DNA of 56,904 nt from Flavobacteriales bacterium (GTDB taxonomy: Bacteria; Bacteroidota; Bacteroidia; Flavobacteriales_D; JAHECK01): assembly GCA_024641785.1 (NCBI GenBank), contig JAHECK010000003.1, positions 1-56,904 on the forward strand, read 5' to 3'. Under the pieces are notes generated by a model. That model did not search any database. It saw nothing but the letters and a program-made list of their open reading frames with translations, and had not been told where the DNA came from. The stretch's first letter is position 1, and every line of letters starts with the position of its first letter. Position numbers and translations under genes: made by a program. This document shows, one piece after another, positions 227 to 33,861 of this stretch.

Positions 227-3163
227 TTATTTAACAATGATTTTTTTAACTTTTCCAAATTTGTCGGATCCTAATCTTACCAGATATACACCCGGAGCAG
301 CATAAGACATATCAAAATCGTAGAAATAATTTCCATTAACATTTTGAACTCTATTTGAAATCACTTTTTGTCCTGCAGTATTATGAACCGTAATAATAAG
401 GGTCTCATCTGTGTTTAATGCAGTAAAGGTCACTTCAAATTGATTATTTGGAAGATAACTGATCATCATTTCATTTGGTTCAGAGATCCCTTCTCCTAGA
501 CCAATAGAAAGATCAATGTTGGCAGTATAATCCTCTGTTTCTCCATAAGAAGTCTCTTCACAGGCATCATCAGGAACGCCTGTGTTCCAATTTGTTTTAG
601 CTCGCATTAAATGCTGTCCTAAAGGAGCTGATTCATCTACTGTAAAATCAGTTGTTCCGCTATATGTTCCGGTAGCTGATCCAGCACCTAAAACAAAATC
701 ATCCACGATCAATTCATTATTTTCAAAAACAAAATTATCGTTGAAATCGATCCAAACTTTAACAAATTGATCACCATAGCCCGTAGTCACGGTAAGTTCA
801 TTGGTGGAGCCAGGATAGAGGTCAGCGACCATATCGGTGTAATCAGCATATCCGTCAGGTGAGCAATCGGTCTCATTATCAATGGTGGTCAATTGAAATA
901 ATTGAAAACCATCGCCGAAACTACAATTAGTAAAAGGAGTACACATACTATTTTCCACGGTGGTCATACTAGTGTCGTTGGATAAATCAGTATCTCCGGA
1001 AAGAGAGGTATAAGCCATAAATTCATAGCTACCAAGAGCAGAAAGGTCTGCAGTAGTATTAAAGTTATAGGTCATTGATCCCGGGCCATCTAAAGGTCCT
1101 GCTACCACTTCTGTTACAGGTGTACCTCCGTCTATTACGTAGCTAACATCAAAGTCAGTTTGAGCAGCACCGCCATAATTTTCTATACTTATGCTAACCA
1201 CTTCACTGCTGCTTAAGCCTGAAGCTGAAGCAGGACTTGTAATAGCTGTGATTCCGATATCATTTGGATTAAGATGTGTAAGCACCTTACTCAGTGTATC
1301 ATTCATATTATCCTCATCACCGATCAAGGCGGTGTAGGCTGTAATTTCATAATTAGCTCCAACAGTCGACATGTCAACAGTTGTAGCAAAACTATGCATA
1401 ACAGAAGTAGAAGGTGGAATGGTATCCATATAAATTTCACTATACACTGTACCACCGTCAACAGAAAAACTTACTGGCACTTCCCAAATAGAATCTACTC
1501 CAAAATTCCGAATTGAAACGGTGATCGTTTCGGTGGCACTTAAAGTTCCGTCATTTGGAGAGTTGATCAAATTGATTCCGGCATCGAGAAGAAAGTCAGG
1601 TGCCAGTTTAAATGCACCAACCACATTTTTTCTTGCATTGCTTTTAAAATATTCTCCAATATGCCAAAAGGTTTTGTCATCAGCAGGATCAATAGTCATT
1701 TGTGCATAATCTCCATATCGGGTTGATCCGTCATTTTGTAATCCTTCGCCAATGGTATCTTCAACCAGGGTCATTTGTCCTAAAGGATCGCTTTCATATC
1801 TACCGGTAAATCGAATACTCACTTTTTGAGTTGAACTTACCACAGAATAACCAAGTCCGATATTCCCTAAAGCATCCATAGCAATAGCTCCGCAAAAAGC
1901 ACTATGCCCGGCAGGTTGTTCGTAAGTACCTTCCTGATAAATATACCAGTCTTCACCATCATTGTCTTGACGCAGTTCCATCCATCTGATTCCGGCGTGA
2001 TCATCGTTATTATCCAAATCGACTACAAAATTAAGAACCGCTGAATTATGATCCGCAAAACGTCGATATTGAACTAAATTCATAATTGTTGCCTGAAGGG
2101 CGTCAATATCCGGACCGGAAGGTTGTGGTAAATTAGAGAAACTACCTCCATCGAATAAACCATCAAAAACTTCTGTATTAAGGATCTGAGGATCTGATAT
2201 GGTCGAATTCGCCGGGGTTGCCCAGTTTACATCTATGGTCCATACTTTTAAATGATCAGTAGATACTCCACTCCATGAATCATCTTGCATATAAACGATA
2301 GGAGCACCACCTGCCGGAGGAAGTTCTGCTCCATTGCAATTAAATCCTAAAGGACTATAAAACCCACTTGTTGTGATATCAGTTAAAGGAAAACCAATGA
2401 TCTGCACCGTTGCAGCTCCAGCAATCACCTCATCTCTTTCGATAGCAAAAACTACATCACTTGTTCCTGCAGATCCTGAAAATAAATTTGAAGTAAGATA
2501 ATAACCATCAGACCAGACAGAATATTTTGGATAATCCGGCAGACCTGCCATAGGAAATTCATAGGTATACCAATCATCATTTACAGGGTCAGGGCCTTGA
2601 CTTATTGCAATTAAAACACTACTAAAAGTGAGTTGGGTGATTAAAAATCGATCGGCAAATTTATCATATAATACAATGGGGTCACCAGTAGTCTCTCCCG
2701 GCCAAATGGTTGATAAAGAAGCAGCAGTAGTAAGCGCATTCCCTTCCTTATCCCATATTCTGAAAGAAGAATTCCAGGCATTTACTAAATGATTAGGACC
2801 CACAGCAGCTGTTGGGTCGGTGGGGGTCGAACTTCCACTAGCGGCATCCCATGAAACGATAGGTGTTTTTGAAGGATTCTTTGTCTTTAATTCTTCATCT
2901 ATCAGCAAAGGGTCATTTCCAATTGGGAGCCCTTTTCCTGGAACGGCTTTGTTGCCATCCATTCTTTTTGGGTTATACTCTTTTTTAATATCAACTGCAG
3001 GAACAAAAGTTCCATTTGCAATTTGAGAGGCAATAGAAGGAACGACTATCATGGTATTTGAAACACTGACTGAGGTCGCTTTTGTTTTTTCTTTACTTTC
3101 TTGAGCCGTAGAAACAGTAGCAACAAAAAGTAGTAATGTAAACAACAGTAAATATTTTTTCAT
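227..3163 (-). CDS. Large secreted multidomain protein: signal peptide, CARDB-like Ig repeats, GEVED-type domain, T9SS type-A C-terminal sorting domain
   Basis: 978-aa ORF with an N-terminal signal peptide (MKKYLLLFTLLLFVATVSTAQ). It has two CARDB-like repeats (..NFGVDSIWEVPVSFSVDGG.., ..NYGGAAQTDFDVSYVIDGG..) and the motif CEETSYGETEDY typical of GEVED domains. The C-terminal ~80 aa (..VTFTALN..ITVHNTAGQKV..GVYLVRL..KIIVK) looks like a T9SS sorting tail. Confidence 0.85.
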   Translation of the reverse strand: MKKYLLLFTLLLFVATVSTAQESKEKTKATSVSVSNTMIVVPSIASQIANGTFVPAVDIKKEYNPKRMDGNKAVPGKGLPIGNDPLLIDEELKTKNPSKTPIVSWDAASGSSTPTDPTAAVGPNHLVNAWNSSFRIWDKEGNALTTAASLSTIWPGETTGDPIVLYDKFADRFLITQLTFSSVLIAISQGPDPVNDDWYTYEFPMAGLPDYPKYSVWSDGYYLTSNLFSGSAGTSDVVFAIERDEVIAGAATVQIIGFPLTDITTSGFYSPLGFNCNGAELPPAGGAPIVYMQDDSWSGVSTDHLKVWTIDVNWATPANSTISDPQILNTEVFDGLFDGGSFSNLPQPSGPDIDALQATIMNLVQYRRFADHNSAVLNFVVDLDNNDDHAGIRWMELRQDNDGEDWYIYQEGTYEQPAGHSAFCGAIAMDALGNIGLGYSVVSSTQKVSIRFTGRYESDPLGQMTLVEDTIGEGLQNDGSTRYGDYAQMTIDPADDKTFWHIGEYFKSNARKNVVGAFKLAPDFLLDAGINLINSPNDGTLSATETITVSIRNFGVDSIWEVPVSFSVDGGTVYSEIYMDTIPPSTSVMHSFATTVDMSTVGANYEITAYTALIGDEDNMNDTLSKVLTHLNPNDIGITAITSPASASGLSSSEVVSISIENYGGAAQTDFDVSYVIDGGTPVTEVVAGPLDGPGSMTYNFNTTADLSALGSYEFMAYTSLSGDTDLSNDTSMTTVENSMCTPFTNCSFGDGFQLFQLTTIDNETDCSPDGYADYTDMVADLYPGSTNELTVTTGYGDQFVKVWIDFNDNFVFENNELIVDDFVLGAGSATGTYSGTTDFTVDESAPLGQHLMRAKTNWNTGVPDDACEETSYGETEDYTANIDLSIGLGEGISEPNEMMISYLPNNQFEVTFTALNTDETLIITVHNTAGQKVISNRVQNVNGNYFYDFDMSYAAPGVYLVRLGSDKFGKVKKIIVK

Positions 3164-10328: not shown

Positions 10329-11747
10329 ATGATGAATAATTTGAGATTAATAGGGGTCATCTTTTTATCAGTTCTTCTATTAACGAATTGTAAAAAAGAT
10401 GATAAAGTGACCGATAATGGTCAGGGAGAAGTTGTTTTTTCAACTAATAAAACATCAAATTTTGATAAGAGTGCAGAATCTAACTGTGAGTTAACTGTTT
10501 CTTATGCATTTGTTGTAGTGAATGAAATGACCTATAACCTGCCTGTATTCTATATTGATGGAATGATCACTACACAAGCCATTAAGCTTGATGCAGGGGA
10601 TTATACATTAGAGGAATTTATTCTAATGAATGATAATGAAACTCCTGAAATATTGGATGACGATATCGTGGTAATGGCCTCTGTAAATGAAGAGGGAGAA
10701 TTTGCGAATTATGTGGAAATGACCCTCCCTTATGATTTTACTGTAGAAGCTTTCTTAAAAGTTGAGCTTCATGTAGAAGTGATCTGTTATTATCCTGAAT
10801 ATTATGACTGGTACGGATTCGAATTTTTCACTGTATGGGTAACAAATATTCATGAATGGTTCTTCTTCGGAGATCTATGTCTGAAAGCACCTTACGAATA
10901 CGAAGAAAGCTTATACGCTGAACAAAGTCAGGGATTGCAAGTAGATGTTCCTGCTATTTTTGAAATTGAAGTATGGCGAAATGAAGAATACCTCACTACC
11001 TTCAGCAATGAAAGTTTCTTAGGGGAAAACAATCCTCTAAAAATCACTTATGCTGATAGAGAAGGTATTTTGGATGAGTATGAGTTAAGACTTAATGTAC
11101 TCGTTAAAGTGGGTGACGGATTTGAATATGTTTATTTCTACAGCTGGTTCTTTACTGATGTAGCTGAGCTTCCTACAAATGGGGATGGTGTTACCGACTT
11201 TGTGATCGGAAACTGCGTATATGATGCACCCGACTTGTTATTAGCTCCTTGGATGAATCTTCCTATGGGAATTACATATGACTGTGTTCACCCTGGTGAA
11301 AATAGCTATTTCGATATCACTTTAAGCAATATCGGTCCTGGTTATGATATCCAAAATGGAGGTCCATACGAAGGATGGTGTGCTGATCTTGATAATACGA
11401 TCGGTCCTGGTGCCTATATAATGGATGCAAAAAGTTCATTATATCCTGAACTTCTACCGGGAGTATGGCAATTGAAAGGGCCTGCGTTGAATGCTTGTAA
11501 CTGGTTGTTTAACAATCTCGATAATTATGTATATACACCTGAAGAAATGCAAGATGCATTATGGTGCCTATTTGATGGCGTACCATGTACAGGTGTTGGT
11601 GCAACTATGGTTGCAGATGCATTGAATCATCAAGACTTCTCTCCTCTTCCAGGAGGATGGGCTGCGGTTCTATTCTTTGATGTGAATGATGATCCATTTA
11701 TTAATACGGATCATACTCAAATCACATTTTTCGTGGTAGATCCATAA
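10329..11747 (+). CDS. Uncharacterised surface-lipoprotein family, 'long' member of pair 1, with extra ~160-aa C-terminal Cys/Gln-motif module
   Basis: 472-aa ORF starting 11 nt after the short gene. It has the same signal peptide and lipobox. The C-terminal extension contains GWCADL (Cys351, nt 11379-11381) and EMQDALW (Gln408, nt 11550-11552). Confidence 0.88.
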   Translation: MMNNLRLIGVIFLSVLLLTNCKKDDKVTDNGQGEVVFSTNKTSNFDKSAESNCELTVSYAFVVVNEMTYNLPVFYIDGMITTQAIKLDAGDYTLEEFILMNDNETPEILDDDIVVMASVNEEGEFANYVEMTLPYDFTVEAFLKVELHVEVICYYPEYYDWYGFEFFTVWVTNIHEWFFFGDLCLKAPYEYEESLYAEQSQGLQVDVPAIFEIEVWRNEEYLTTFSNESFLGENNPLKITYADREGILDEYELRLNVLVKVGDGFEYVYFYSWFFTDVAELPTNGDGVTDFVIGNCVYDAPDLLLAPWMNLPMGITYDCVHPGENSYFDITLSNIGPGYDIQNGGPYEGWCADLDNTIGPGAYIMDAKSSLYPELLPGVWQLKGPALNACNWLFNNLDNYVYTPEEMQDALWCLFDGVPCTGVGATMVADALNHQDFSPLPGGWAAVLFFDVNDDPFINTDHTQITFFVVDP

Positions 11748-20321: not shown

Positions 20322-20337
20322 TTTTTAATTACTTAAA

Positions 20338-20380
20338 CTACCCTTCGACAAGCTCAGGGGGACATGGTATTTTAACTTTT
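20338..20380 (+). repeat. Solo copy of a REP-like interspersed element
   Basis: ctacccttcgacaagctcagggggacatg...taactttt is near-identical to 30480-30522. Its reverse complement also occurs at 30447-30472. Confidence 0.7.
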
Positions 20381-29935: not shown

Positions 29936-30268
29936 TTAACAACAAGAATCGGCGTCGCAAGAAAACTGAGTAAACAAGTTTTCAAACAAAGACTTTATGC
30001 TTTGCCAACGCTGACCATTTATACAATAATTTACAGAAACCCCTTCGATATTCCCAATAATAATCCCTAGGTCTTTGAGTTCTCTTAAGTGCTGACTGAT
30101 CGTTGCTTGTGCCAATCCGGTTTCTTTAACAAGGTCGCTATTAATACAAGTATTGCTTTTTAAGAGATGCATTAAAATCGCAATTCTAGCAGGATGCCCT
30201 AAGGCTTTGGCTAATGAAGCGATCTCATTTTGCTCTTTTGTAAAAAGACTTGTTTTAGTAACTCCCAT
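29936..30268 (-). CDS. arsR: ArsR/SmtB-family metalloregulatory transcriptional repressor
   Basis: 110-aa product with the HTH region LAKALGHPARIAILMHLL....C..DL......AQATISQHLRELKD.G. The C-terminus is Cys-rich (CDADSCC). Confidence 0.88.
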   Translation of the reverse strand: MGVTKTSLFTKEQNEIASLAKALGHPARIAILMHLLKSNTCINSDLVKETGLAQATISQHLRELKDLGIIIGNIEGVSVNYCINGQRWQSIKSLFENLFTQFSCDADSCC

Positions 30269-30275
30269 TTATTAT

Positions 30276-30299
30276 TTTATTACATTGCAATATTACGAT
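30276..30299. promoter_or_regulatory. Candidate ArsR operator upstream of arsR (autoregulation)
   Basis: tttattacattgcaatattacgat begins 8 nt upstream of the arsR start. It matches 29894-29917 at 23 of 24 positions. Confidence 0.5.
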
Positions 30300-30446
30300 G
30301 AAATAAATTAGTGGCAAAATTATTTTGAAAAAAATCTCACATGCCATCTATACAAATTGGAAAAGGGAAATCCAAAATCAACCTAGCAGAATAGTAGGAG
30401 GGATTTATTAAAGTGTTCTTCACTTTTTTAGTAAAAGTGAACATGT

Positions 30447-30508
30447 CATGTCCCCCTGAGCTTGTCGAAGGGCGTTATACTACCCTTCGACAAGCTCAGG
30501 GAGACATG
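30447..30508. repeat. Inverted pair of REP-like elements forming a 26-bp-arm palindrome
   Basis: The arms are catgtccccctgagcttgtcgaaggg (30447-30472) and cccttcgacaagctcagggagacatg (30483-30508). They are separated by a 10-nt spacer and have a single mismatch. Confidence 0.8.
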
Positions 30509-30541
30509 AATATCTAACTTTTAAAATCAAGATTATTCATT

Positions 30542-30640
30542 CACTCACCCACTTATACACTCACCCACTTATACACTCATACACTCACACACTCATACAC
30601 TCACACACTCATACACTCACACACTCATCCACTTAAACAC
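30542..30640. repeat. ~6 tandem copies of a CA/TC-rich 16-nt unit
   Basis: The units are cactcacccacttata x2, cactcatacactcaca x3 and cactcatccacttaaa x1. The array ends exactly at the stop codon (30641-30643) of the minus-strand ORF. Confidence 0.9.
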
Positions 30641-32395
30641 TTATTTCAAATCTACCACGATCAGCGGACCATGATTGTTTCCAATAAAATAGGATTCGCT
30701 ATTCCCTCTTTTAATAGAAAGGATTTTCCGAGAATTAAATGGCATATAAAAGCCACTTTCGGTCGGCATTAGGTAGCTAAATGAATCGTTTTCTCCCTGT
30801 ATTAATACCAAACCTGTTCCGGCATCTTCCCTAACGGTTTCCACCTCTGTTTGATAGCGATTTCCAACCCCAATCAAATCGAGTTTCCCATCCTTATTCA
30901 AATCCTTTACTTCCCAATCCATAATTGGTGAAATCTGAGCTGCATGAGTTAAGGGCTTAAAAGTAAAACTGCCGTTCTTTTGCTGGTAGAAAATCCCATG
31001 TCGGAATTCATTCGCTTCTGCATAATAAGATGCTGCTAATGCTTCGGGAGTATATATTTCCTCGGCACTGGCATTTGCAAACTGTTCGTAGCTTGAAAAT
31101 CGCTCTTCCAGTAAAGGCAATTGTTCTGTACTACATTCTTTACCCCGAACAGGGACTATCTTATCTCCGTCATGTTTAACCAATACTACATCCTGTGTTC
31201 CGGACGAATCAAAATCATATAAATAAACCGCTAATGGTTTTTCTTTTGAAGCTCTGAATTTATTATTCATCCCTTCATTTCCTGCAACAATATCGAGTAG
31301 TCCGTCATTATTCATATCGGCGATTTCAAGACTATTAAACCAACCCTTTATATCATTGGAAATCATAATTGGCTTATCAAATTGCTTTTGTTTATTCCCA
31401 TAATAAGCCCATACACCTGTCCAATGCCCAGTACATATTAGATCTTTAAATCCATCCTTATTAAGATCTTCAAATTTCAGATCCTGGATCATTCCAAGTT
31501 GATTAATTCCATCGAATACTGTATTGGCATCTATTTCACTTAAATCTTTTCCATCGCCGATCCATAAAGTAAAAGGCGCTGGTAAGGGATAGTGATTTGG
31601 ATTGATCCTGCCGGCTACTAAAATATCCTTTCGACCATCTGAATTAAAGTCATCGCTAATGCTTGTACCTCCATTTACAAATGACACGTTTTTCAATTCT
31701 CCTTTATTAAAATTTCCAACTCCATCCGAAATATAAATTCGATCGGCATTTTCTGCATTTCCCGCTTCATGTGTGCCACCGCCGGAACTCACAAATAGAT
31801 CTTTAAATGTATCTCCATTTACATCTAAAAACACGCATCCTTCATCTTCATAATCTTTATCTTTCAAAAAAGTGGGAAGTGTATATGAATTATAGCTTCC
31901 ATAAATATCCTGAATTAAAAATGACCCCGTGTTTCCTGCCGAGCCGCTGACATAAATTTCGTCTAAACCATTTTGCAGAATATCTGCTTTACACATAAAA
32001 GGACCAGATACACTCACCATATGAGGCAATAAACGCTGAAATTCATAATCATTATTGTTGTTTTCACTGTATCCAATCTTTAATCCTGCATTATTTTCTG
32101 CAGGTTTGAAAAATCGCACATTCGCATATTGAAAAGCGAAATTGGTCTGTTCACTATTTTTCCCCGCTATTATATTTCCTGAATTCACTTTTACTTTTTG
32201 AAAGTTATTGTATGCATCTTGATAGATCAACTCATTAGGCATATTTCCATTTTGGTCAGGGTAGAAAAACAAAGATGATTCCATCGAACTGGCATAACCA
32301 TGAACGGTTTGGTATTCACTCATCAAAGTATCGCTGTTATACAAAGCATAAAAACGTGTATTTAGCCAGGTTGCATTGGCGGCCGGAATACTCAC
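30641..32395 (-). CDS. C-terminal portion of an FG-GAP/VCBS-repeat (CRTAC1-like) protein; probably the downstream half of a frameshifted gene
   Basis: 584-aa ORF with FG-GAP/VCBS repeats (DVNGDTFKDLFVS, DFNSDGRKDILV, DLNKDGFKDLI, DMNNDGLLDIV, DLNKDGKLDLI). It has no signal peptide and a GTG start 2 nt after the stop of the preceding ORF, in another frame. Confidence 0.6.
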   Translation of the reverse strand: MSIPAANATWLNTRFYALYNSDTLMSEYQTVHGYASSMESSLFFYPDQNGNMPNELIYQDAYNNFQKVKVNSGNIIAGKNSEQTNFAFQYANVRFFKPAENNAGLKIGYSENNNNDYEFQRLLPHMVSVSGPFMCKADILQNGLDEIYVSGSAGNTGSFLIQDIYGSYNSYTLPTFLKDKDYEDEGCVFLDVNGDTFKDLFVSSGGGTHEAGNAENADRIYISDGVGNFNKGELKNVSFVNGGTSISDDFNSDGRKDILVAGRINPNHYPLPAPFTLWIGDGKDLSEIDANTVFDGINQLGMIQDLKFEDLNKDGFKDLICTGHWTGVWAYYGNKQKQFDKPIMISNDIKGWFNSLEIADMNNDGLLDIVAGNEGMNNKFRASKEKPLAVYLYDFDSSGTQDVVLVKHDGDKIVPVRGKECSTEQLPLLEERFSSYEQFANASAEEIYTPEALAASYYAEANEFRHGIFYQQKNGSFTFKPLTHAAQISPIMDWEVKDLNKDGKLDLIGVGNRYQTEVETVREDAGTGLVLIQGENDSFSYLMPTESGFYMPFNSRKILSIKRGNSESYFIGNNHGPLIVVDLK

Positions 32396-32397
32396 TT

Positions 32398-33861
32398 TCA
32401 GGTAAGTTTCACCGATTCTTTATCTACATTATTGAGTACCAGATCAAGATCACCATCATTATCTAAATCACCATATGCAACGCCATGACTATGCATTTTT
32501 TGGTAAATCCCCCACTTATCCCCACTATTTTCAAACTCAAATAATCCTTTGTTTTCAAAAACTAAATTGGCTAATACTGTTTGAGGAATTTTATCCAGAT
32601 ATTCATTGATATCCTGAGCTTTGCCTTCTTTTTGCATTTCGCTAAACATACTTGGCAAATCATTATAGCGTGTATCCCGCTTATATCCATTCGAAATAAA
32701 AATATCACGATTATTATCTCCATTCAAATCGACCATCAACATAGCCCAACTCCAATCCGATTGATGTACCCCGCTTAATTGAGCTACTTCACTAAAGGTT
32801 CCGAGGCCGGTATTTACTTGCAAAACATTCGACATGTATTGATAATTCCAACCCAGTTTTACACGTGCATCAAATTTTTCGGGTTGCATGCTAGGCATAT
32901 TCGTTTTCGATCGGTAATGCGAAGAAAAGGACATGTCGGCTGAGGCGATATCGATATAACCATCATTATTTATATCTGCAGCGTCGCACCCCATGCTATA
33001 ATTACTAGTATGCTTAAAAGCGGCTTGTGCTACATTACTAAAAGTCCCGTTCCGATTGTTTAGAAGTAAAAGGTCGGGTTCGTCAAAATCGTTGCCAACG
33101 AAAATATCCGGCCAGGTGTCGTTATTGATATCACAAATGGCAATTCCCAATGAATAACCATATTCCGAAATTCCGGCTTCTGCAGTTACATTTACAAATA
33201 CCCCATTATCATTTCGCAATAATTGGTCAGATTCAACCTTACCTTCCTTCACTTTTACAAGAAAAGTTTGAAGATCATCCTTATTTTTAAAATTTGCCGG
33301 ATGGGTGATCATATAGGCATCCAGATCGCCATCTCGATCATAATCTAAAAAAGCGGTTTGAGTAGAAGGAGCACTTATGTCCAACTTATATTTTGCCGCT
33401 TCTTCTTTAAATTTCATTCCCCCCAAATTTATGTACAAAGCATTTTTTCGGTAAAGGGGAAGAGGTCCCGAACGAGAAACATAAATATCAGGAAGTCCAT
33501 CATTATTTAGATCAACGATACTTACACCGACACTCCATCCTTTGTTTGAAATACCGGCATCTTTACTGATATCAACAAAGCGTAAATTCCCGATATTTTT
33601 GTAGAGTTTATCTTCAACTTGATTGCCCGCAAAAAAGAGATCTTGCAAGCCATCACCATCAAAATCAGCAATACCTACACCGGCTCCATTGTAGAAATAA
33701 TCGTAATCCAATACAGATTCATTATTATCTTCCTTTAAACTATTGATGAAAGTAATGCCACTTTCGCTTGAAGAAAGAAGTTCGAAGCCCATTTTCTTTT
33801 CCTGAGAGAATAAAAATATCGGACTTAGAATGAGGAGGGTAAAAACAATAAATCGATTCAT
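32398..33861 (-). CDS. N-terminal portion of an FG-GAP/VCBS-repeat (CRTAC1-like) secreted protein
   Basis: 487-aa ORF with a signal peptide and FG-GAP repeats (DFDGDGLQDLFF, DLNNDGLPDIYV, DYDRDGDLDAY, DINNDTWPDIFV, DINNDGYIDI, DLNGDNNRDIF, DLDNDGDLDLVL). It ends abruptly inside a repeat. Confidence 0.65.
   Translation of the reverse strand: MNRFIVFTLLILSPIFLFSQEKKMGFELLSSSESGITFINSLKEDNNESVLDYDYFYNGAGVGIADFDGDGLQDLFFAGNQVEDKLYKNIGNLRFVDISKDAGISNKGWSVGVSIVDLNNDGLPDIYVSRSGPLPLYRKNALYINLGGMKFKEEAAKYKLDISAPSTQTAFLDYDRDGDLDAYMITHPANFKNKDDLQTFLVKVKEGKVESDQLLRNDNGVFVNVTAEAGISEYGYSLGIAICDINNDTWPDIFVGNDFDEPDLLLLNNRNGTFSNVAQAAFKHTSNYSMGCDAADINNDGYIDIASADMSFSSHYRSKTNMPSMQPEKFDARVKLGWNYQYMSNVLQVNTGLGTFSEVAQLSGVHQSDWSWAMLMVDLNGDNNRDIFISNGYKRDTRYNDLPSMFSEMQKEGKAQDINEYLDKIPQTVLANLVFENKGLFEFENSGDKWGIYQKMHSHGVAYGDLDNDGDLDLVLNNVDKESVKLT

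Follow-up and report, generated by a model that had tools for sequence, protein, structure and literature searches.

What kind of sequence is the tandem array that meets the stop codon of a minus-strand gene at positions 30542-30640 of the window, i.e., the whole 56,904-nt stretch of Flavobacteriales DNA analysed here, and does it act on the genes beside it? The genome that carries it (3.31 Mb in 219 contigs, 35% GC, 96% complete) belongs to the Bacteroidota, as shown by genes for proteins with type IX secretion sorting domains and by the Saprospiraceae MAGs that supply its best named homologues. The original prediction presented the array as a rarity and offered several roles for it, among them a contingency locus and a 3′ untranslated element. 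With a probability of roughly 70%, we read it instead as a long simple-sequence repeat with an octamer unit, one member of a genome-wide population of non-coding arrays with a period of 7 or 8 nt.

On the plus strand, the array comprises 12.4 units of 8 nt arranged head to tail with the consensus CACTYAYN. The units are paired into 16-mers, each made of two 8-nt CACTYAYN units, and the 16-mers form three blocks: two perfect copies at 30542-30573, three perfect copies at 30574-30621, and one copy at 30622-30637 followed by CAC. The count of three in the middle block is provisional, being taken from a short-read assembly of a MAG, and it is precisely there that an independent Logan contig is interrupted. 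The six 16-nt tandem copies built on a CACTCAYA-type 8-nt subunit that had been described at the outset are thus present, as 2+3+1 16-mers. TRF reports a period of 8, 13.1 copies and a score of 119, which ranks the array first among the short-period arrays of the window, and all 10 matches to the double-unit pattern in the window fall within it, against 0.02 expected from 100 dinucleotide shuffles. Over its 99 nt, the plus strand contains 43 C, 35 A, 21 T and no G; the minus strand, which is the sense strand of the adjacent FG-GAP gene, accordingly reads T(A/G)AGTG-NN and is C-free. Stop triplets are present in all three sense frames, and no ORF covers 30542-30640. A regular-expression scan reveals a 13th, degenerate unit, CACTTATT, at 30638-30645 of the plus strand, whose sequence includes, in reverse complement, the TAA with which the FG-GAP ORF stops (30641-30643). 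The array was said to end exactly at this stop codon: it does adjoin the codon, but its 13th unit runs across it.

The composition and layout of the array exclude several structural readings. Its units are contiguous and lack spacers, so that it is not a CRISPR array, in agreement with the original prediction. G-quadruplex, i-motif and triplex readings were also rejected, the G or C tracts being too few and the sequence not homopurine. Indeed, the G-rich strand contains only two GGG runs, which places it outside the GGGNATC G-tract subtype. The array is unpaired in the centroid fold, and a search of Rfam returned no family on it, the sub-threshold chance matches all lying on a neighbouring palindrome.

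The array occupies a spacer between two minus-strand genes. The first of these is an ORF of 584 aa with FG-GAP/VCBS repeats (30641-32395, minus strand; FG-GAP_3, E 2e-23), which encodes a secreted or surface-type repeat protein. Its stop is native, as relatives share a C-terminus of the form NNGPL..D.K with the stop at the same place. Near-identical FG-GAP proteins were found neither by searching with the whole protein (best 69%), nor with its last 150 residues, nor by exact look-up. As a separate observation, the FG-GAP gene is split into adjacent ORFs in different frames, 32398-33861 and 30641-32395 (junction 32395-32398), which reflects either a frameshifted gene or an assembly error. The second gene, an arsR-family regulator (29936-30268), lies downstream of the array on the same strand. 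The array is located 274 nt upstream of the arsR start, with a 26-bp hairpin in between, and the promoter-like sites that a generic sigma-70-type scan detects for arsR are confined to 30289-30347, on the far side of the hairpin and clear of the array. No canonical intrinsic terminator was predicted in the array's spacer. Because the array lies between a stop codon and a strong hairpin, and because the arsR promoter-like sites lie beyond that hairpin, it is probably 3′ untranslated RNA, one of the roles suggested earlier; it would ride on the FG-GAP transcript as an unstructured extension up to the hairpin.

This position bears directly on the proposal that the array is a contingency locus, in which changes in copy number would switch or tune the FG-GAP surface protein or the arsR operon. 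A slippage-prone array that differs between strains, next to a gene for a secreted or surface-type protein, is in keeping with such a role. However, length changes after a stop codon cannot alter a reading frame, and the distance to the arsR start, beyond the hairpin and outside the promoter-like sites, speaks against an effect on that gene. The array is also one of 64 similar arrays that adjoin genes of all kinds, mostly at their 3′ ends, and no link to phase variation was found for comparable heptamer repeats either (Rehm et al. 2015, PMC4692102). Since the array can change neither a reading frame nor the spacing of a promoter, and since similar arrays stand beside genes of all kinds, phase variation is unlikely. 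The contingency locus of the original prediction, which would require a place in a promoter, a 5′ leader or a reading frame, is thus highly improbable, and the array would be expected to have no gene-specific switching role.

The original prediction also proposed that the array should be compared between strains. Three short Logan contigs (runs SRR12825426, SRR12825430 and SRR12825431) were retrieved through an exact look-up with the ArsR protein and aligned to the window; this strain comparison consists of these three contigs, all of which break inside or near the array. One of them (L015) is identical to the window save for one SNP in the array and breaks exactly at the start of the three-copy block, and one contig of the locus begins inside the palindrome. 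In another (L014), (TAAGTGTT)n stands in place of the TATAAGTG/GGTGAGTG units of the window, and three substitutions are found within the 9 nt adjoining the array, while 154 of 154 nt are identical to the window from the junction to the arsR start. Since contigs with identical flanks carry either a SNP or different units, the array appears to be hypervariable and to evolve much faster than its own flanks; the strain variation that had been anticipated is indeed observed.

How such changes arise is suggested by the internal order of the array. Perfect 16-mers, registers of 8 and 16 nt, overlap with the stop codon and differences between strains all argue for remodelling in place by slippage. 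The array would grow, shrink and swap units through strand slippage in 8- and 16-nt registers, and the perfect 16-mer copies would point to recent events of this kind. The earlier view of the array as a slippage-type non-coding tandem repeat agrees with its position outside ORFs, its registers and its variation between strains.

Comparisons between species extend this picture. CYGAACTW arrays, another word of the same genome (G000), are found at eight loci in G000; its congener G001 has none, nor have three further genomes from the order. CACTYA arrays are found at five loci in G000 and one in G001. The repertoire of words is accordingly species-specific, with complete turnover between species. 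At the locus itself, no array follows the stop of a related FG-GAP gene in G001, nor that of a 55%-identical FG-GAP homologue on an ENA metagenome contig; the contigs of the 69% and 55% homologues either lack an array or end 10 nt after the stop. The closest FG-GAP match in G001 reaches a contig end inside the gene, and the arsR neighbourhood of G001 is not syntenic with the window. As a side observation, a spacer near an arsR homologue in that non-syntenic region (L011, G001:C86, about 10880-10915) contains an array of the 9-nt unit TACTTCCGA. Exact-pattern scans of JGI metagenome contigs did not find the locus.

The motif itself is widespread. Stretches with a CACTCAYA triple number more than 119 and come from many phyla; among the genomes that contain it are several from Saprospiraceae, Lewinellaceae, Cyclobacteriaceae and Aquimarina. 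The motif is therefore neither unique nor diagnostic. A MAG labelled Metamycoplasmataceae (record CBDHHR01) stands out among these records, with dozens of long CACTCAYA arrays on many contigs, including L021, L025, L048, L074 and L098, and up to 33 pattern matches in a single 7-kb contig, which is unusual for Metamycoplasmataceae; these array-rich contigs may be host or eukaryotic contamination.

Within G000, the array is far from isolated. TRF applied to the whole genome with a threshold of at least 3 copies detects 41 period-7 and 27 period-8 arrays, of which 64 of 68 lie outside ORFs; most of the other four are found about 40 nt or less from the start of an over-extended ORF. In the same survey, period-6 arrays are all inside ORFs, as are 9 of 11 period-9 arrays. 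The 64 non-coding period-7/8 arrays occupy 45 of about 1,577 spacers. They are built from some ten words (CYGAACTW, TTCTATCC, GTCTTCS, CTTCGWG, TAAATCC, TGCACGR, CACTYA plus two further nucleotides, and a few more), and different words are often strung together. The search of the genome for further CACTCAYA arrays that the original prediction had recommended proved productive: the CACTYA word recurs at four other loci (C78:31234, C122:7298, C72:11626 and C213:11803). The copy at C78:31234 likewise adjoins the stop codon of a gene on the minus strand, and its first 18 nt are almost the same as those of the window array. The rarity claimed for such arrays holds for bacteria in general, but neither for this genome, with its 64 arrays, nor for the repeat class. 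On the C-rich strand, a T-run precedes each of the CYGAACTW arrays (C66:2568, C113:9135, C131:16998, C183:8205, C186:4863, C194:8793 and C209:8303 among the G000 loci), and most of them adjoin the stop codon of a gene on the minus strand.

The distribution of these arrays among spacers is biased. Convergent spacers with arrays number 20, against 6.7 expected by length (about 3-fold over expectation), while divergent spacers with arrays number only 5 against 12.7 expected, and co-directional spacers are slightly below expectation; the bias by spacer type reaches a p value of about 1e-7. The orientation of the arrays is biased as well. On the strand read away from the gene, G exceeds C in 27 of 30 arrays at stops and in 10 of 10 at starts, counting arrays whose nearest gene end is no more than 60 nt away, with arrays of one spacer not being independent of each other; as gene calls are longest ORFs, with exact stops and approximate starts, the stop-codon cases are firm and the 5′ cases less so. 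The window array obeys this polarity: it follows the FG-GAP stop as a C-free, G/T-rich run on the sense strand. Background compositional skew was rejected as the cause, because ordinary flanks without arrays show no comparable skew (GC skew of 0.001 at 3′ and -0.07 at 5′ ends); polarity is therefore a property of the arrays. Richness in stop codons was also considered and set aside, the difference across 3′ arrays (10 versus 5, p 0.3) being not significant. Among the CACTCAYA arrays collected across phyla (119 loci), many lie inside spurious long ORFs of high-GC genomes and polarity is noisy.

Being symmetric about genes, the polarity has little resemblance to a signal carried by sense RNA. 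It fits either a constraint linked to the direction of the polymerase or a geometry imposed by mosaic elements whose arms are inverted. Words that recur from locus to locus, together with strict polarity at both gene ends, are not well explained by neutral, independent slippage, and hint at selection, at an interaction with a protein or the polymerase, or at dispersal as arms of mosaic elements. In the reading that we favour, i.e., a slippage-driven population of simple-sequence repeats, the orientation of each array would be set by a constraint on the whole class, which we take to be a transcription-related filter such that transcripts running out of a gene are rich in G and those running into it are rich in C and poor in G.

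A stronger version of this idea holds that the arrays are polar transcription insulators, kept for their effect on RNA polymerase traffic. Rho prefers C-rich, G-poor RNA for loading, and G-rich RNA is stable on C-rich DNA. Read-in or antisense RNA across the window array would be C-rich and G-free (43% C and 0% G over 99 nt) and could lead to Rho termination, while the G-rich, C-free RNA read out of the gene would be prone to R-loop formation and pausing and would aid 3′ end formation. Symmetric polarity (27/30 stops and 10/10 starts) that is not due to background composition, enrichment at 3′ ends and between convergent genes, and the lack of a predicted canonical intrinsic terminator in the spacer all agree with such a function. 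At this locus, however, the next gene is co-directional, and no transcript obviously runs into the FG-GAP gene from its 3′ side. An array in front of a start would, moreover, place a Rho-loading sequence in the sense 5′ leader, the words drift fast and differ between congeners, and only 45 of about 1,577 spacers have an array, so that most genes do without one. We thus consider it unlikely that the arrays are insulators kept for polymerase traffic; the broader statement, in which they are orientation-dependent insulators of Bacteroidota genes or, in a variant, are made or spread by hairpin/GIY-YIG elements, is given the same low chance. If it were true, polarity at both gene ends would be functional, and the drifting words would matter only through their composition.

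The other geometry compatible with the polarity involves the palindrome beside the array. This 62-nt sequence (30447-30508), with 26-nt arms and a 10-nt centre, is one copy of a hairpin family that is dispersed over 22-28 loci of the genome. Its arms match at 25 of 26 positions, and the minus-strand RNA would form 26 consecutive pairs, including one G-U. The gap between the palindrome and the array measures 33 nt, rather than the 34 nt first reported. The palindrome is contained in a 95-nt segment (30422-30516) bounded by a 6-nt direct repeat, ACTTTT (30422-30427 and 30517-30522). This segment is absent from L014, and deleting the same 95 nt from the window recreates the L014 junction. As L014 has the array without the palindrome segment, the hairpin is an independent insertion, and the 95-nt segment is an insertion/deletion polymorphism separate from the array. 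In itself, the segment has the appearance of a MITE-like insertion whose presence or absence is polymorphic in the population. The tie between the array and a REP-like palindrome that the original prediction had drawn is hence accidental at this locus: L014 has the array without the palindrome, and of the 11 full palindromes in the genome just one lies within 200 nt of an array.

Single arms of the hairpin behave otherwise. At the stricter threshold of 2 mismatches, a period-7/8 array lies no more than 200 nt from 7 of the 17 single-arm copies of the motif, and for all motif loci the count is 8 of 28, against 1.3 expected from random intergenic positions. The window contains a second copy of the motif, of the single-arm type, at 20337-20366, with TTTTAACTTTT and a tract rich in pyrimidines after it; an arm, TTAACTT and arrays are arranged in the same way at C66, C68, C72, C82 and C218. 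At G000:C209 (L138, i.e., C209:2500-4300), a 98-aa GIY-YIG ORF (695-991, minus strand; PF01541, E 2.6e-9) is bracketed by inverted single hairpin arms at L138 647-671 and 1264-1290, the sole locus of this kind seen. GAAGNNN-type arrays, themselves inverted, lie outside these arms and reach the stops of two convergent genes (L138 600-1380). Besides its Pfam GIY-YIG match, the C209 nuclease has a weak PDB match to a UPF0213 protein.

The C209 arrangement recalls the NTS/SRM hairpins that flank the ssnA genes for GIY-YIG ssDNA nucleases (Chenal et al. 2025, PMC11893778). As in NTS-ssnA-NTS, dispersed hairpin arms bracket a single-domain GIY-YIG gene in an IR-gene-IR order (PMC11893778). Unlike NTS/SRM, the palindrome family does not match the SRM pattern, so that the likeness is one of architecture only (PMC11893778): the published SRM search pattern has no match in 30401-30540 on either strand, and its single match genome-wide compares with 7 in a shuffled genome. 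This comparison concerns the palindrome alone, the tandem array being separate from the hairpin.

Such loci raise the possibility that the arrays are the outer inverted arms of mobile mosaic elements centred on the hairpin motif, on one occasion with a GIY-YIG gene, and that polarity is a geometric by-product of elements filling spacers. The nested inverted arms and GAAGNNN-type arrays of C209, the excess of arrays near motif loci and single arms, the recurrence of the same words at many loci, and the presence of the palindrome as a 95-nt insertion bounded by a 6-nt direct repeat are all features that such elements could produce. Against this stand the separability of array and palindrome in L014, the scarcity of arrays near full palindromes, the fact that most arrays have no hairpin motif nearby, and the failure of the published Ssn-related motif pattern to match the hairpin. 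The overlap of the last unit with the stop codon likewise fits local seeding better than insertion. Altogether, an origin of the arrays as arms of mobile elements appears quite unlikely, and we retain the slippage-driven simple-sequence repeat as our reading of the window array.

The array, being composed of tandem units within the 5-11-nt range, non-coding, dispersed, polar and variable between relatives, has the properties of the long simple-sequence repeats and polar repeats described in other bacteria. The cyanobacterial STRR heptanucleotide repeats are likewise dispersed, short-period intergenic tandem repeats with lineage-specific words. They have a period of 7, belong to a different phylum and are not known to be related in sequence to the array.

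As summarised by a later author, Mrazek, Guo and Shah (2007) described statistically long SSRs with units of 5-11 nt, mostly heptamers, with unit lengths that are not a multiple of three excluded from coding regions, and proposed polymerase slippage as their source (summary in PMC4679880). The contrast in this genome between periods 7 and 8 outside ORFs and periods 6 and 9 inside them follows the rule as given in that summary, whereas Bacteroidota are not among the top genomes that the summary names (PMC4679880).

The closest parallel is provided by the abundant intergenic heptamer arrays of Xanthomonas (GGGAATC) and Nostoc PCC 7120 (GGGGAYT) (Rehm et al. 2015, PMC4692102). In these, the G-rich strand is the coding strand within 50 bp after a stop and the non-coding strand upstream of a start, some arrays overlap the stop codon, and spacers between divergent ORFs are under-represented while co-directional (aligned) ones are preferred; the arrays vary extensively in length and sequence between close relatives and are mostly transcribed (PMC4692102). 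The arrays of this genome share their intergenic abundance, their placement at gene ends, their polarity, their overlap with stops and their variability (PMC4692102). They differ in that the unit of the window array is 8 nt and AT-rich, in that some ten words are used in the genome rather than one, in that the host is a low-GC Bacteroidota, and in that convergent spacers are enriched 3-fold and co-directional ones fall slightly below expectation (PMC4692102). The G-quadruplex explanation of Rehm et al. is inapplicable here because the array has two GGG runs.

Oriented heptamer arrays were also reported for the word TAACTGA in marine Beggiatoaceae, cyanobacteria and five Bacteroidetes (MacGregor 2015, PMC4679880). 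These lie mainly one to a few nt upstream of start codons, for which a role in translational control was proposed, are mixed with other heptamer arrays in some Bacteroidetes, and are absent from the orthologous spacers of close relatives (PMC4679880). The window array is likewise intergenic and oriented relative to the end of a neighbouring gene, but its word and period are different and it follows a stop codon (PMC4679880). The array thus belongs to a kind of repeat already described, and its polarity rule was published earlier for the heptamers of Xanthomonas and Nostoc.

For the locus itself, these findings mean that the array is unlikely to be a regulator of the FG-GAP or arsR genes, and that it is a predictable source of assembly breaks and of variation in strain typing. 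For the family of repeats, they add another Bacteroidota genome of low GC whose many unrelated words of 7 and 8 nt follow the polarity rule published for heptamers of the G-quadruplex type. That polarity extends across unrelated words argues that the rule is independent of G-quadruplexes or of any particular word. Candidate causes of the polarity are insulation by Rho or R-loops and the arms of mosaic elements.
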